The position numbers and the translations under genes are program-made. Positions 8,996-28,920 of a DNA stretch of 32,000 nt are shown here, one piece after another. Source of the DNA: Megasphaera elsdenii DSM 20460. Its GTDB lineage: Bacteria > Bacillota > Negativicutes > Veillonellales > Megasphaeraceae. The notes below the pieces were generated by a model. That model saw nothing but the letters and a program-made list of their open reading frames with translations. It was not told the origin of the DNA and searched no databases. Position 1 is the stretch's first letter; each line of letters opens with the position of its first letter. Location of the stretch: assembly GCF_003010495.1 (NCBI RefSeq), contig NZ_CP027570.1:1680001-1712000 (forward strand). The letters are read 5' to 3'.

Positions 8996-11900
8996 TTCCC
9001 ATTTACTTAGACATGAAGGCTTTTGGTCCCTATGCTGGCCGGGAAATCGTCGATTTCCGCCAATTAGGGGACCACAAACTGTTCCTCATCTACGGGCCGA
9101 CAGGCTCGGGCAAGACGACCATCCTCGACGCCATGTGCTACGCCCTCTACGGCAGCACCAGCGGCGACAGCCGTACCGGCGCCCACATGCGCAGCGAGTA
9201 CGCTTCGCCGCAGGAAGCGACGTCCGTATCGTTCCGCTTTGCCATCGGCCAGAAATATTACCGCATCGACCGCAGCCCGGAACAGGAAATCGCCAAGAAA
9301 CGCGGCACGGGCTTGAAAAAGGCTTCGGCCCAGGCCGCTTTATACGAAACGGATGAAGCCGGGGACCAGGAAAAGCTCATCGCCGCCAAGAATGTGACGG
9401 CTGCCGTCGAAGGGCTGCTGGGCTTTAAAGCCGACCAGTTCCGCCAGGTCGTCCTTTTACCGCAGGGGGACTTCCGCAAGCTCCTCCTGGCCGGGTCCGG
9501 CGAACGCCAGCAGATCATGCAGACCCTCTTCCATACCCAGCGCTATGCCCGGCTCCAGGAACTGGCCAAAGCCCGCCACGATGCCTTGGCCAGCCAGTAC
9601 GAACAGGTGCGGCAGCGGCGGGAGCAGTGCCTGGCGGCGCTGGACATTGCCGACGAAAAGGAACTGCCTGCAAAGGAACGGCAATGGCAGGACCAGGCAG
9701 TGGCCGTAGACAAACAGTGGCAGGAAGCCGAAGGGACGCGCAAGACCTGTCAGGCCGCTTTCCAGGCCGCCCAGGCCCTGGACGCCCACTGGCTGCTGCG
9801 GGACCAGAAACGCCGGGAAGCGGCGCAGCTCCAGGCGCAGGCCCGGCAGTTCCAGGAAAAGAGGGATACCATCGCTACCCTGCGCCAGGCCGAAATCCTG
9901 GCCGAACCCTGCCGCCACCTGGACGACCTGGAAAGAGAGGGCAGGGAGGCCCATAAAGCCGCTGAAAAAGCAGGAAAACTGGCCGAAAAGGCCCGGCAGG
10001 ACCTAACTGCGGCCAAGCAGCAGCTGGAAGGTCTTTCGGCCCGGGAAAAGGGCTATAAGGCGGCCTGTGAAGAACAGGTGCAGCTGGCAGGCCTGCAGGA
10101 CAAGGCCGGAGCCTATCGGACCTGCTGCCTCGAAGAAGGGCAGTGCCAGAAAAACGTGACTGACGCCGAAAAGCGCTGGAACCAGGCCCGAAAGAAAAAA
10201 GAAAAGGAAAAGCAGGCCCTGGACAAGGCCCGGGAAGCCGTCGCCGGTCTGGCCGAACAAGCCGTCGCGGCGGAACAGGCCAAAGCCCGCTGGCAGGCCC
10301 TGAACGACCGGATCCAGCGCGAAGGCGAAGCGGCTGAGCTGGAAGCTAAGGCTAAAGAAGCGCAGAAACAGTGGCAGCACAGCCGGACCTTTCTGGAAAA
10401 AGCGGCGGCCAAAGCCCGGGACGAACGCATTGCCTATGAAAGCGTCCGGGCCCTGTTCCTGCAGGCCCAGGCAGCTGTCCTGGCGTCGGAACTGGAAGAG
10501 GGCCAGCCCTGCCCGGTCTGCGGTTCGAAAGCCCATCCCCTGCCGGCTGTGCGCCCGGAATCCCTGCCGGAACGGCACGACGTCGAACAGCATCAGAAAC
10601 GGGCCGAAGCCAGTGAAGGCAAGCGCCAGCAGTGGGAAGTGACAGCCAAAGCCGATGAAACCCGCTGCCAGGCCCTGCAGGCCCAGTACGAGGCCCTGCG
10701 CCGCCAGTATCCCCAGGACGGGACCCTGGCGGACTGGCAGGCCAAGGCCGGACAGGCTCAAGTGGCTATGGAAGGCTTGCAGCAGCAGGTCCGGGACGGT
10801 GAAAAGCTGAAACAAGCCGTCGCCGCCGGCGAGGCCAGACTGGCCCGCTGGGAAAAGGACGAAGAAACGGCCCGGACGGCCGTGGAACAGGCGAGGACCG
10901 CTGCGGCTAAAGCCGCTGAGACGAAGGCCCGCCTGGAAGCGGACCTGCCGGCAGCCTATCGAGACCCGCTGGCGTTGCAGCAGCGACTGGATGCCTTGAA
11001 CCGCGCTATCAGGATCTATGAAAAGGACTTGCAGCACTGCCGCGACGCCGTCGTCGCCGGCGAACGGCAGGCGGCCAAGCAGCAGCAGGAAGCGCGGAAC
11101 TGGCAGCATCAGGTCGAAGTGCTGCGGGACCGCTTCAGCCAGGGCGTCCAGGCCCTGCGGGACCGCGTCCTGGCCGCCGGCTTTGAAAGCGTCAAGGCCT
11201 GCCGGGCCATGCAGGCCGCCGTGCCGCAGATACCGGGACTGGAAGAATCCGTCCGGCACTATGACCAGCAGGTCCAGCAGGTCCAGGGCCAGCTGGCCCA
11301 GGAAGAGGCCGCCATCGGCACACAGGAACGGCCCGACGTGGCCGCCGCCCGGACGGCCCTGGACGGCGCTGAAAAGGCCAGCCAGGCCCTGGTCGAAGCC
11401 AAGGGCAGCCTGACGGCACGGTACCAGCGCTGGCAGCAGGAAAAGGAAGCCCTGGCCGCTTTGCAGCAGGAAGGCCAGGACCTGACCGAAGCCTATAAGA
11501 CCGTCGGCGCCGTCTATGAACTCATTGCCGGCAAGCAGACGGGCATCAACTTTGAACGCTACGTCCTCGGGGCCCTCCTCGATGAAGTCCTGGCCGCCGC
11601 CAACGGGCGCCTCCAGGGCATGAGCCGCCAGCGGTACAGCCTGCAGCGCTCCCAGTCCTGGGACGACAAGCGGGTCAAGCAGATCGGCCTGGATATCGAA
11701 GTCTATGACAATTATACGGGCTATGCCCGTCCGGCCAACACCTTGTCCGGCGGCGAGACCTTCCTGGCCTCCCTGTCCCTGGCCCTGGGCCTGGCCGACG
11801 TCGTTCAGGCCTATTCTGGCGGCATTCACTTGGATACGATGTTCATCGATGAAGGCTTCGGTACCCTCGACGGCGAAACCTTGGATTACGCCTTGAAGAC

Positions 11901-25934: not shown

Positions 25935-27221
25935 TTAGATGGTTGCCAGTGCTTTTTCAACAGCAGCGAGGAGGTCTTCGATGTTTTCCAGGCCTACAGA
26001 GATACGGATCGTGCCCGGTGTGATACCGCAGGCGCGCTGTGCTTCTTCCGAAAGCTGCTGATGTGTCGTCGAAGCCGGATGAACGAGGAGGGACTTGGAG
26101 TCGCCGACGTTAGCCAGGTCGGAGAAGATGTCCGCATTGTCAATGAATTTACGGGCAGCTGCATAGCCGTCTTTCAATTCAAAGGAGAAAATCGAACCGG
26201 TTCCCTTGGGGAAGTATTTCTGAGCCAGTTTGTAGTACGGCGAAGACGGAAGGGACGGATAGTTGACCTTAGCGACTTTCGGATGATTTTCAAGGAAGTC
26301 TGCAATCTTCTGAGCGTTAGCGACGTGGCGTTCGATGCGAAGGGACAAGGATTCGAGGCCCTGGATGAGGAGCCATGCATTGAACGGGCTGATGCAAGCA
26401 CCGAGGTCGCGGAGGGCTTTGGCGCGGATACGAGTTACGAAGCCAGCACCGGGGATATCCTTGGCGAAGTTAACGCCGTTGTAGGATTCGTCAGGCGAAG
26501 CAAATTCTTTGAAGCGGCCGGAACCAGCCCAGTCGAATTTGCCGTTTTCAACGATGAGGCCGCCCAGGGTCGTGCCGTGGCCGCCGATGAATTTCGTAGC
26601 CGAATGGACGACGATGTCAGCACCGTGTTCGAGCGGACGGAAGAGAAACGGCGTAGCGAAGGTGTTGTCAACGATGACCGGAAGGCCGTTCTTGTGGGCG
26701 ATTTCAGCGATGGCTTCGAAGTCCGGAATGTTGATAGCCGGGTTGCCGAGGCTTTCCAGGTAAATGGCTTTCGTCTTGTCGTTGATGTATTTGGCAAAGG
26801 ACTGCGGGTCATCGGGATCGGCGAAGTGCGTCGTAATGCCGAGGTGTTTGAATGTTTCACTGAACAGTTCGACTGTGCCGCCGTACAGCGTCGGAGCAGC
26901 GATGATTTCGTCACCGGCACCGGCAAGGTTGATAATGGAGTACGCAATGGCCGATGCGCCGCTGGCCGTAGCCAAGCCAGCTGTGCCGCCTTCCAGGGCT
27001 GCAATACGTTTTTCCAAGACGTCTTGCGTCGGGTTGGTCAAACGGCTGTAGATGTAGCCAGCGTCTTTCAAAGCAAAGCGGTCTTCAGCCTGCTGGGTAT
27101 CTTTGAAAACATAAGATGTCGTCTGATAAATAGGAACGGCGCGGGCACCCGTTGCCGGATCCGGTACCTGACCTGCATGCTGCTGTAATGTTTCAAATTT
27201 GTAGTTAGTGTTTTCGCTCAT
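25935..27221 (-). CDS. metY: O-acetylhomoserine sulfhydrylase / aminocarboxypropyltransferase (PLP-dependent)
   Basis: Starts [18 protein letters not shown]. Shows the pattern [19 protein letters not shown] (PLP lysine). Start refined from track ORF 27347 to ATG 27221 (AGGGGGA RBS), because upstream codons fall inside the T-box leader and its terminator. Confidence 0.9.
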
Positions 27222-27285
27222 AATACATTTCCCCCTAATATTGTAAAATATATATAATGTAATATAAACTTGAAAGCCTTGTAAC

Positions 27286-27560
27286 AAAAAAAGCTTCCGT
27301 CCCAAGTAAGGGACGGAAGCACCGTGATACCACCCAATTTCACCCATCCTTCACAAGATGAGCCTCTTCAGGTACGCAGGCAGATGAGCCTTCAATACCA
27401 TAGTGCTGTAACGGGCACGCCCGGATGGCCTAACTGTTCGACCAATCTGCTCGGAGTCCATCTTCCACGATGACCCTTGCATTCCCTTTCACCAAATGGG
27501 AACTCTCTGTGCCAATTCCTATCGTGTACTCTTCTCTTCATTGCAACACTATCAAGTTGT
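27286..27560 (-). promoter_or_regulatory. T-box riboswitch leader, probable Met (AUG) specifier, controlling metY-metA
   Basis: On the minus strand: stem I with AGAGAAGAGTA, ACAGAGAG and GGTGAAAG. The helix CACGAT/ATCGTG is followed by GAAG-AUG-G (AUG at 27459-27461). T-box motif AAATTGGGTGGTATCACGG lies at 27322-27340. Terminator is GCTTCCGTCCC-ttactt-GGGACGGAAGC plus TTTTTTT (27286-27320). Confidence 0.8.
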
Positions 27561-27596: not shown

Positions 27597-27720
27597 ATGA
27601 TTTTCGCAAAAAAGTATAGAAAAAAATACGTTAAACGTTATATCATTCAGCGAAACATAACGGATGATGGAACTGCGTATAATAAGCCTATGCTTTCATG
27701 CACAGTCTCTTTTTTGGAGT

Positions 27721-27749
27721 TTGAAAAAACAAATTGACAATGTTATACT
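27721..27749 (+). promoter_or_regulatory. Candidate promoter upstream of the cas3 relic
   Basis: TTGAAA (27721-27726), 17-nt spacer, TATACT (27744-27749). Confidence 0.4.
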
Positions 27750-27794
27750 CTAATTATGAGTTAACGGAATTTGATTATAGATAGGAAACGCAGC

Positions 27795-28417
27795 ATGAAT
27801 CAGACTGAAAAATGTTTATCCTTTCTTTGGGCGAAAAAAAGGAACAAAGTGGTCAGTTTTTTTGGTTGCCTCTCACACTGCATTTGAAAGATACTATGGG
27901 GGTCATGAAGTTCTTGTGGCATCATTGGGTGAGTGAGGGACAAAGGGAAATCATTAGTCGTACATTGTCGGATACCGGAGAGGTGGCAATGGATATAGCT
28001 CGTCGTTTGGCATGTTTTTTGGCAGGAATTCATGATTTTGGCAAATGTACCCCTGCCTTTCAGACACAGAAGGGGTATCAAAATTCACCAGATTTGGATA
28101 TAGCACTTCTGAATCGCTTGGAACAGGCCGGACTCACAGGCATTTCGTCATTGAACTTGGACATGGCTGCAAGAAAACGTTCACATCATACTGTGACGGG
28201 CGAATATCTGTTGCAATATTTCGGTGTGCAACAAGATATCGCTTCTGTCATAGGGGCACATCACGGTAAGCCTGTAGATAAAGAAGAGATCGTAACTAAG
28301 ATGAAACGTTATCCTCGGTATTGCTTTCAGGATGAAACAAAAGGCCCTTGTCAAAGATTGTGGTTAGCAATGCAGAAGAAACTCCTAGAGGGGAGCTTGG
28401 AAAATTTTCCGATAAGT
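27795..28417 (+). pseudogene. cas3: Type I-E cas3 relic: HD nuclease domain only, N-terminal frameshift in an A7 run, 3' end replaced by a CRISPR repeat
   Basis: Frame 0 from ATG 27795 gives MNQTEKCLSFLWAKK. After the A7 run (27834-27840), frame 2 continues KEQSGQFFWLPLTLHLKDT..GIHDFGKCTPAFQ..SHHTVTGEY..GAHHGKP, the Cas3 HD motifs seen in E. coli YgcB. The sequence becomes a CRISPR repeat at 28418, and no helicase domain follows. Confidence 0.75.
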
Positions 28418-28801
28418 GTCTTTCCCGCACGAGCGGGGGTGATCCCCGATGTACATGACACCGCCAGTTTTGTTATCTCCAAAATAGATACCATAATTGG
28501 GAGTGCCATCGGAATTGATATAGGGTTTACCCAGGTTATCGTTTACATTTTGCAGGAAGTCACGTATACTTATATTAGAGCCAATTGTTGGTACTGGCCA
28601 CGGAGGCGTCACCTCATTAGAGTGTGAATCCGTGGAGGTACTGCCAATGATTGGTTCTTTTTCATTTGATATATCATAAGCTCTAAATTGGGTATATTCT
28701 CCATCTTCAACACTAAAGCGTCTTTCCCGCACGAGCGGGGGTGATCCTGACTATCCAGATGCGACATTGTGTACGTGCTGGTCTTTCCCGCACGAGCGGG
28801 G
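28418..28801 (+). CRISPR. Residual type I-E-like CRISPR array: 3 repeats, one 274-bp and one 33-bp inter-repeat segment
   Basis: GTCTTTCCCGCACGAGCGGGGGTGATCC occurs at 28418-28445 and 28720-28747, identical in both. A third copy at 28781-28801 is conserved for 21 nt and then diverges, like a terminal degenerate repeat. The repeat has the CCCGC-acga-GCGGG Cas6e-type hairpin. Confidence 0.8.
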
Positions 28802-28920
28802 CAACAATTCACAGAAGCTGCCGCATTATGCAGTTGTTTGCTTAATGCGACAGTCTGTTTTTGCCGCGTAGAGAAATACGGAATTATTTTTGAAAGAGCA
28901 AAGTGGAAGCCGTCCGAATA

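Follow-up and report, generated by a model that had tools for sequence, protein, structure and literature searches.

Two identical type I-E CRISPR repeats in the chromosome of Megasphaera elsdenii enclose 274 bp in the place where a spacer of 33 bp is expected. We analysed this locus within a stretch of 32,000 nucleotides, which we call the window, and compared it with related arrays and with phage genomes. The 274-bp segment, referred to as unit A, is a colinear fragment of a polyvalent-protein gene from podovirus-like Megasphaera phages. Taken as a whole, the evidence makes it probable that unit A is an oversized CRISPR spacer, which was captured from a phage at a PAM, was later duplicated and altered by recombination, and persists in this strain as a relic. 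The unit departs from a spacer in one defining feature, the length set by the ruler, and agrees with a spacer in the other features that could be tested. Importantly, it is a conserved, multi-copy and mosaic feature of the species and not a one-off accident of this genome.

A long repeat-flanked segment in the window

The initial annotation had described two identical 28-mers lying 274 bp apart and followed by a 33-bp spacer, and this layout was confirmed (Table 1). The 21-nt core of the repeat occurs three times in the window and not once in 100 shuffles. Direct copies of the array repeat flank the long segment on both sides, and the same holds for all sister arrays. The terminal repeat has diverged, which is the usual fate of terminal CRISPR repeats. 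Within the 274 bp no remnant of the repeat was found, in line with the earlier claim; the best ungapped match covers 13 of 28 positions, compared with a mean of 13.7 in shuffled sequence. Two further properties noted at the outset also held. The segment is AT-rich, with a GC content of 40.5% vs 54.3% for the window, and its minus strand is open through the whole 274 bp, as part of an ORF of 115 aa (28385-28732) that also crosses both repeats. The canonical spacer s1 is common to the window, L002, L006 and L009, and a search for its target found none.

Table 1. Features of the window, and composition of the arrays, unit types and inserts compared with it. Arrays are written in cas orientation; R, repeat; Rterm, terminal repeat; numbers between repeats are lengths in bp.
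Feature	Position in window	Strand	Description
Promoter-like site	27721-27749	+	TTGAAA-17-TATACT with upstream TG, ahead of the cas3 remnant; consensus match only
cas3 remnant	27812-28417	+	HD domain at the N terminus only, about 200 codons; cut off exactly at the start of R1
Type I-E CRISPR repeat R1	28418-28445	+	GTCTTTCCCGCACGAGCGGGGGTGATCC
Unit A, putative oversized spacer	28446-28719	+	Array-sense strand antisense to the phage polyvalent-protein gene; PAM at 5' end
Type I-E CRISPR repeat R2	28720-28747	+	Same sequence as R1
Canonical 33-bp trailer spacer s1	28748-28780	+	TGACTATCCAGATGCGACATTGTGTACGTGCTG
Degenerate terminal repeat	28781-28808	+	First 21 nt (28781-28801) intact; last 7 nt diverged, ...GGGGCAACAAT
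Window array			cas3'-R-274-R-33-Rterm
L002 array			cas3'-R-274-R-274-R-33-R-33-Rterm
L023 array			cas3'-R-33-R-33-R-34-R-274-R-33-Rterm
L025 array			leader-(R-33)x6-R-274-R-33-Rterm
L009 array			(R-33)x7-R-274-R-274-R-33-R-277-R-33-Rterm
L004/L005 array			(R-33)x10-11-R-277-degenerate repeat
Unit type A (274 bp)			Window, L002, L009
Unit type B			L009, L023, L025, L026
Unit type C (277 bp)			L006, L009, L022, L024
Unit type D (277 bp)			L004/L005
L031/L036 insert content			47-aa membrane protein and Zn-ribbon protein
L031/L036 insert content			56-aa RHH/RelB-like protein
L031/L036 insert content			65-aa XRE-like protein, opposite strand

The 4 kb around the feature are 100% identical in HE576794.1, a complete chromosome of 2.47 Mb (assembly GCA_000283495.2) which we take to be that of M. 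elsdenii DSM 20460. The identical 4 kb were also found in at least 10 independent metagenome assemblies. Because the same sequence recurs in a complete chromosome and in many independent assemblies, the misassembly considered in the initial annotation is excluded. An Rfam scan in and around the unit returned no RNA family, only an unrelated T-box. The RNA fold calculated for repeat-unit-repeat has a z-score of -3.9; since most of this structure comes from the two palindromic repeats pairing with each other, the fold is uninformative on the unit itself.

The segment is a fragment of a phage polyvalent-protein gene

The origin of the segment was approached by homology searches. A blastn search with the 274 bp found no match in GenBank phages or PLSDB plasmids, tblastn against phages gave chance-level matches only, and Pfam and PHROGs returned nothing for the minus-strand ORF and the short L001 homologs. 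Homologs of the 90-aa translation without flanking repeats do exist. Scans of GTDB genomes and IMG/VR yielded 11 non-array homologs, all of them in Megasphaera genomes and viral contigs, and each has its match at about residue 1,085 of one ORF of 2,587-3,799 aa. A donor ORF of 2,871 aa carries LPD3 at residues 986-1084 (1.6e-14) and a weaker ART-PolyVal match at residues 1185-1283 (2.3e-5, under the Pfam cut-off). As the unit corresponds to residues ~1085-1175 of the donor protein, and LPD3 ends at 1084 and ART-PolyVal begins at 1185, it covers the stretch between the two domains. The neighbours of the donor gene are tail-tubular, tail, internal-virion and tail-fibre genes, which make up a podovirus-like virion module. 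The large polyvalent-protein gene is found in the donor and not in the window, which holds only an internal fragment of 91 codons.

Viral contig L014 matches unit A at 96-100% in four of the five alignment bins (bins 2-5, ~215 bp), as far as the last base before R1, with ~99% identity up to this repeat, and it agrees with the first 33 nt of the unit at 33 of 33 positions. Similarly, unit C is 98-100% identical to L013, L017, L018 and L020 in the three middle bins. Colinearity with a phage gene agrees with the mobile-element origin of spacers. The minus strand is open because the frame is inherited from the donor phage gene.

The R1-side end resembles a PAM-selected spacer end

The PAM of the Megasphaera Cas1-Cas2/DEDDh integrase is 5'-TT, i.e. 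AA on the spacer-sense strand (Wang et al. 2023, PMC10284694). The initial annotation had proposed a search for a PAM-like motif at the protospacer source, and AA indeed adjoins the R1-side end of the unit in L014 and L013. In both contigs the protospacer of the long unit reads cagAA immediately before CCGATG, so that the motif gAA before C lies at the end facing the leader-proximal repeat. The base rate on the donor strand is 4-5.5% of positions for AA and 2-3% for AAY, which puts chance agreement at 2-5%. The same AA is found for a canonical spacer, sp1, that adjoins long units in L002, L009 and L023. This spacer matches L014 at 33 of 33 positions, in the same polyvalent gene and on the same strand, ~1 kb from the unit, and its protospacer reads ttAA before C. 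Among the normal spacers, 30 of 31 begin with C or T. Judged from these alignments, the unit resembles at its R1 side a regular spacer, selected at a PAM and oriented in the usual way. With an intact operon, as in L004, the first 33 nt of the unit together with the PAM would be a valid target in phages of the L014 type. In many phage variants the PAM position is occupied by GGG rather than GAA, and protospacer position 3 is mismatched as well. These variants could represent escape, or merely variation.

Long units are conserved at the old end of sister arrays

We compared the architecture of about 35 loci and in addition scanned metagenomes for 'repeat + unit start' (Table 1). The other strains belong to the same species, with flanking proteins 97-100% identical. 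The long unit always lies at the old (trailer) end and is present in one to three copies per array. In L009, L023, L025 and L004, three to ten normal spacers lie upstream of it. L004 and L005 represent a different locus with an intact I-E operon, in which the array precedes cas3. The two tandem copies in L002 are 99.6% identical. The normal spacers are 33-34 nt long in 30 of 31 cases, and the 274 bp of the unit and 277 bp of its paralogs do not conform to the ruler length of ~33 nt. In the sister-strain comparison suggested in the initial annotation, related arrays were found to carry one to three long units; L043 is without any. In L027, a C-type unit continues beyond the usual boundary, which is either a phage-array cointegrate or a k=141 assembly chimera.

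Mutual identity among the array units is 94-100% over the outer ~55 alignment columns at either end and drops to 52-81% in the three bins between. Particular phages, on the other hand, match the middles of A and C at 96-100%. In addition, polymorphisms (FRV, SDV, FRDN) are common to different units in different strains. This combination of shared ends and variant-specific middles indicates that the units, as their sequences read today, probably arose by duplication and patchy recombination. One capture is the simplest history, but several independent captures, with their ends homogenised afterwards, could have given much the same pattern. The R2-side end of ~55 bp, common to all array units, is carried by no sampled phage, where identity reaches only 60-70%, and the exact 33-mer of this end is absent from IMG/VR. 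Neither the original donor nor the junction at the far end is thus among the sampled sequences, which is a gap in the case for capture.

Oversized inserts of different origin

At the same chromosomal site, L031/L036 carry 5,549 bp that replace positions 27679-28780 of the window, and identity resumes exactly at the terminal repeat. This stretch consists of a phage-like block (Phage_rep_org_N, Amidase_3, DUF1659, DUF2922, sigma-70) followed by R-455-R-449-R-430-Rterm. Small genes lie complete within the inserts, together with promoter-like, RBS and terminator elements (Table 1). An independent sample, L051, is 96% identical and reads R-449-R-430-R-33-Rterm. The 449-bp insert aligns colinearly from end to end with L052, a repeat-free MGE contig (83%), and partly with the viral contig L048 (84%); in both contigs AA precedes the base aligned to the first base (T) of the insert. 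All three inserts (c1, c2 and c3) begin with a pyrimidine. There are, by the evidence of these alignments, two independent oversized inserts with identifiable donors, and both are PAM-bounded at the 5' end. Oversized capture would thus recur, because another strain has repeat-flanked inserts of 430-455 bp, one of which is PAM-bounded.

Decay of the I-E locus in the window strain

R1 does not open an intact I-E array. It is fused directly to a truncated cas3 of ~200 codons, with no other cas gene following. The remnant matches Pfam PF18019 (Cas3_HD) with E=6.6e-31 over model positions 6-167 of 207. No other cas genes were found at the window locus, and a lyase/aminotransferase gene lies downstream of the array. 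The junction between cas3' and the repeat is base-for-base the same in the window, L002, L022, L023 and L024. The junction stretch is 99% identical to nt 505-611 of the intact L004 cas3, which places the break at ~nt 611-624. Since many strains have the same junction, it goes back to one ancestral deletion, which probably removed everything from cas3' to cas2 together with the leader and some of the array. Other strains show other states of decay: L006 and L026 retain cas3', cas1', cas2/DEDDh, 37 bp and a repeat, and in L009 part of DnaQ is fused to the repeat.

Because no I-E cas genes accompany it, the array in the window strain is most probably a fossil that no longer functions. Other CRISPR-Cas types have been reported from this strain. 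Transcripts from the promoter-like site ahead of the cas3 remnant could run on into the array and would then be antisense to the phage gene. Like other orphan or degenerate arrays that follow the loss of a cas operon, the window array has no adjacent functional cas, and inter-repeat deletions, which vary among strains, have reshaped it. It differs from them in that an oversized unit is retained, and in that the endpoint of the deletion lies within cas3 and is precisely joined to the repeat.

Alternative explanations

Spacer-mediated recombination between phages and CRISPR loci has reportedly been described in staphylococci by Varble and colleagues, and it offers another route to a long unit, which we regard as unlikely. 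Here, two adjacent ordinary 33-nt spacers would derive from one strand of the phage gene, and recombination with a phage would replace the repeat between them with the intervening phage sequence, either in a double crossover with both spacers or when the phage integrated at one spacer and was excised at the other. The precursors would be the ordinary spacers CCGATGTACATGACACCGCCAGTTTTGTTATCT and ATTGGGTATATTCTCCATCTTCAACACTAAAGC, side by side in the array. Such a history fits the 5' end of the unit, which is a canonical PAM-bounded protospacer, and the normal spacer of the same gene and strand that adjoins the units, as primed adaptation would give. The mosaic middles show that the units do recombine with phages. 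Moreover, a second AA stands directly before the last 33 nt of unit A, with a chance of 5.5%, or 13% if 32-34 nt are allowed; this fits bridging between two spacers and counts against capture by the integrase. We nevertheless downgraded the bridging of two spacers, because the second AA that it predicts fails in all three of the other inserts, c1, c2 and c3, where no AA precedes the last 32-34 nt. In unit A, the 3' spacer that bridging assumes would have A as its first base, as opposed to the C or T of nearly all real spacers, and no 33-nt spacer starting with the unit sequence was found among the ~35 loci or in the metagenome scan. Delivery of the repeat-flanked segment by a mobile element that bears I-E repeats, as a phage mini-array or as solitary repeat units, was among the origins proposed in the initial annotation. 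Virus-borne mini-arrays exist in other systems, and the 5.5-kb phage-like block in L036 lies directly upstream of three repeat-flanked cassettes, in place of the cas3 remnant. We consider this origin improbable all the same, given that the donor loci are repeat-free: no repeat (up to 7 mismatches allowed) occurs within 10 kb of the donor gene at any of the 11 loci, and none in L045-L049 or L052. The exact 21-nt repeat core was found only once in the 2.9 million viral contigs of IMG/VR, and that match is host flank, a chromosomal cas2-leader-R-33-Rterm remnant by rplM.

The remaining possibilities concern the segment itself. That the minus-strand ORF of 115 codons is a real host gene for a small protein is very improbable. 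Its frame is open across the unit in 14 of 14 array copies examined and its amino-acid sequence is protein-like, yet the ORF starts and ends within CRISPR repeats and has no Pfam match, and its sequence is an internal linker piece of a phage protein of 2,600-3,800 aa. In addition, unit plus repeat amount to 302 or 305 bp, so that tandem copies are out of frame, as seen in P0002. The frame is open because it descends recently from a phage gene and not because it is a host gene. Scarcely credible, finally, is a former leader of a second mini-array, which had also been proposed, or a decayed run of repeats and spacers. From L006 alone a leader appeared plausible, since there, as in L026, no more than one repeat and 37 bp separate the unit from cas2 upstream of it; the leader was rejected on the longer arrays and on the colinearity with the phage ORF. 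In those arrays the unit lies at the trailer end, downstream of normal spacers and in up to three copies, and the genuine leader end (...AAAGGGATCCATTACT, directly before the repeat) is a different sequence. As for a decayed run, 274 bp do not fit the 61-bp period, as had been pointed out, although the sister units of 277 bp would accommodate five spacers and four repeats (5x33+4x28). We take this agreement as coincidence, because the 277-bp units are also continuous phage sequence; the best internal match to the repeat is, moreover, no better than in shuffled sequence. The initial interpretation therefore stands as far as a foreign, coding-derived segment in spacer position is concerned, and finds no support for the mobile-element and leader origins. 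Of the proposed origins, aberrant integration of a long gene fragment has the best support, with a colinear phage gene and an AA PAM at the R1 end.

Discussion

In the history that we favour, capture of an oversized spacer, a continuous fragment of the phage polyvalent-protein gene (LPD3 / ART-PolyVal) would have entered the I-E array of an M. elsdenii ancestor. Its R1-side end would have been chosen as in a normal spacer, with a pyrimidine right after the AA PAM and in normal orientation. The far end, however, would have been joined at 274-277 bp and not at 33 bp, so that the length ruler was bypassed; we infer that Cas1-Cas2 carried out the integration. Unequal crossing-over between identical repeats would then have duplicated the unit, giving up to three copies (A, B and C) at the old end. 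The copies may afterwards have swapped sequence among themselves, and their middles would have been overwritten by homologous recombination with different incoming phage variants. In the window strain, one deletion would have fused the cas3 HD remnant to the repeat, with loss of cas3' through cas2 and of the leader, and later repeat-mediated deletions would have left only unit A and one normal spacer.

The characterised Megasphaera integrase inserts at any repeat of an array in vitro and shows a strict 23-bp-duplex ruler (PMC10284694). Because of this strict ruler, a product of 274-455 bp is unexpected from the enzyme, which is a point against capture. Compared with a canonical spacer of the Cas1-Cas2/DEDDh system (PMC10284694), the unit is similar in being flanked by two intact repeats, in its phage origin, in its AA (TT) PAM and in its orientation, and it shares the array with a normal spacer from the same phage gene. 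It differs from a canonical I-E spacer in its length, 274-277 bp, or 430-455 bp in another strain, vs 33 bp, which goes against the strict ruler, and in having paralogous copies whose middles track different phage variants. Engineered long spacers have been studied in E. coli and S. thermophilus Cascade, where one Cas7 is added per 6 nt and activity is kept (Luo et al. 2016, PMC5009729; Songailiene et al. 2019, PMC6859484). The extensions tried with E. coli Cascade reach only +24 nt (PMC5009729). As in those experiments, the unit would be an I-E spacer longer than wild type, but here it is natural and is extended by +241 nt. The mosaic units also resemble Varble-type spacer-mediated recombination, in that they imply homologous exchange between array sequence and phage genomes. 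There, the homology is that of a ~30-bp spacer and the CRISPR locus is transduced, whereas here a tract of ~275 bp is overwritten in patches.

A broader possibility, which we think quite unlikely, is a second, ruler-independent mode of adaptation that takes up PAM-flanked phage fragments of ~270-450 bp, up to whole small genes with their promoters. Long units would then, by virtue of their length, act as efficient substrates for homologous recombination with incoming phage variants and so update the memory in place, maybe as long antisense or guide RNAs, or by expressing captured phage regulators (RHH, XRE-like) against the phage. In-place updating by phage recombination would explain the shared ends and the variant-specific middles.

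We found no description of natural oversized or abnormally long type I-E spacers in the searchable literature. If the unit is only a frozen accident, it calls for caution in annotation, as spacer-length filters would split or discard such arrays. It can also be used as a strain marker in M. elsdenii. The length of I-E spacers is regarded as fixed by the Cas1-Cas2 ruler, for which Megasphaera Cas1-Cas2/DEDDh is the structural model. The mosaic paralogs are a clear natural record of repeated recombination between array and phage. Natural inserts in the same genus that are PAM-bounded, correctly oriented and 8-14 times the normal length suggest that the ruler can be bypassed in vivo, and such a bypass is directly testable with the published in-vitro system.

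Gene-sized inserts between type I-E repeats

Features detected around the array and in related loci are listed in the table. At the chromosomal site of the array, another M. elsdenii strain (L036/L031) carries inserts that contain whole small genes with their own promoter-like, ribosome-binding site and terminator elements. They encode a membrane peptide and a Zn-ribbon protein, an RHH/RelB-like protein and an XRE-like protein. Two of the three inserts, followed by a normal 33-bp spacer, were also found in an independent sample (L051:1-1023). The 449-bp insert is colinear with a mobile-element contig (L052), and its 5′ end is bounded by AA. The phage-like block of the same strain stands in place of window positions 27679-28780 and ends where the cassette array begins; one portion is similar to contig L028, which likewise contains fragments of the polyvalent-protein gene.

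Coordinates of features at the array and at related loci
Feature	Location	Strand	Details
5.5-kb phage-like block	L036:12640-16750		Phage_rep_org_N, Amidase_3, DUF1659, DUF2922, sigma-70 r4
455-, 449- and 430-bp inserts between I-E repeats	L036:11160-12640 (= L031)		Another M. elsdenii strain, at the window's chromosomal site
Second array	L004:7853-10930		Array upstream of cas3, same orientation, with two genes in between; locus with intact I-E operon
Minimal I-E remnant	L050:1560-1700		cas2 tail, leader, repeat, 33-bp spacer, terminal repeat; beside rplM
Type II Cas9-Cas1-Cas2 locus, HipA_C gene, fragmented polyvalent-protein region	L001:998-11340		Contig of a different host
T-box leader	Window 27306-27550	(-)	Rfam RF00230, 103 bits, E=3e-23

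The T-box leader lies upstream of a gene for a Cys/Met-metabolism PLP enzyme. This gene occupies 25935-27347 on the minus strand, and the next one encodes a homoserine O-succinyltransferase.

Unit length, unit boundaries and the protospacer

The oversized spacers of type C (sister-strain arrays L006, L009, L022 and L024) and type D (the L004/L005 locus) are 277 bp long, which is exactly the length of five spacers and four repeats (5 × 33 + 4 × 28). Both consist of uninterrupted phage sequence in which no repeat remnants occur, and the match in length is probably a coincidence, with a chance of about 2-5%. A 914-bp contig (L027:1-914) contains, in this order, a repeat, the canonical spacer sp1, another repeat and one unit of type C, and its sequence then continues for more than 450 bp beyond the normal unit boundary without another repeat. 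Two readings fit this contig: a cointegrate of phage and array, or a chimera that assembly at k=141 formed via the shared sequence.

The first base was C or T in 30 of the 31 distinct normal spacers from the window, L002, L004, L005, L009, L023 and L025. From this preference, the effective PAM may be AAY, with Y kept as the first base of the spacer; published work on Megasphaera gives the PAM as TT/AA only (PMC10284694). At the PAM position of the unit protospacer, most phage variants (L013-L020, around 10250-10290) have GGG and not GAA, and the same variants also show mismatches at protospacer positions 3, 18 and 21. Together, these changes are consistent with escape from targeting at this position, although they could be ordinary variation.

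Other CRISPR loci and the cas3-repeat junction

Between the second array and cas3 of the intact locus lie two genes that may be an embedded defence gene pair; their products are a 433-aa ATPase (AAA_15/AAA_21) and an unannotated 208-aa protein. On the type II contig, the stretch homologous to the unit is present as two tandem paralogous copies within the polyvalent-protein region.

The point where the cas3 remnant meets the first repeat (…TTTTCCGATAAGT joined to GTCTTTCCC, window 28414-28418) is the same in many sister strains (L002, L022, L023 and L024), while their arrays are otherwise unlike. The shared junction in differing arrays indicates a single ancestral deletion and subsequent repeat-mediated reshuffling. 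The final ~107 nt of the cas3 remnant are 99% identical to cas3 of L004, whereas the whole proteins are only ~80-82% identical, which suggests that the cas3 alleles are mosaic. The minimal remnant in L050, an IMG/VR 'viral' contig, lies in host flank, and the contig is a prophage prediction that includes host DNA. This remnant shows the same locus in decay in another Megasphaera lineage.
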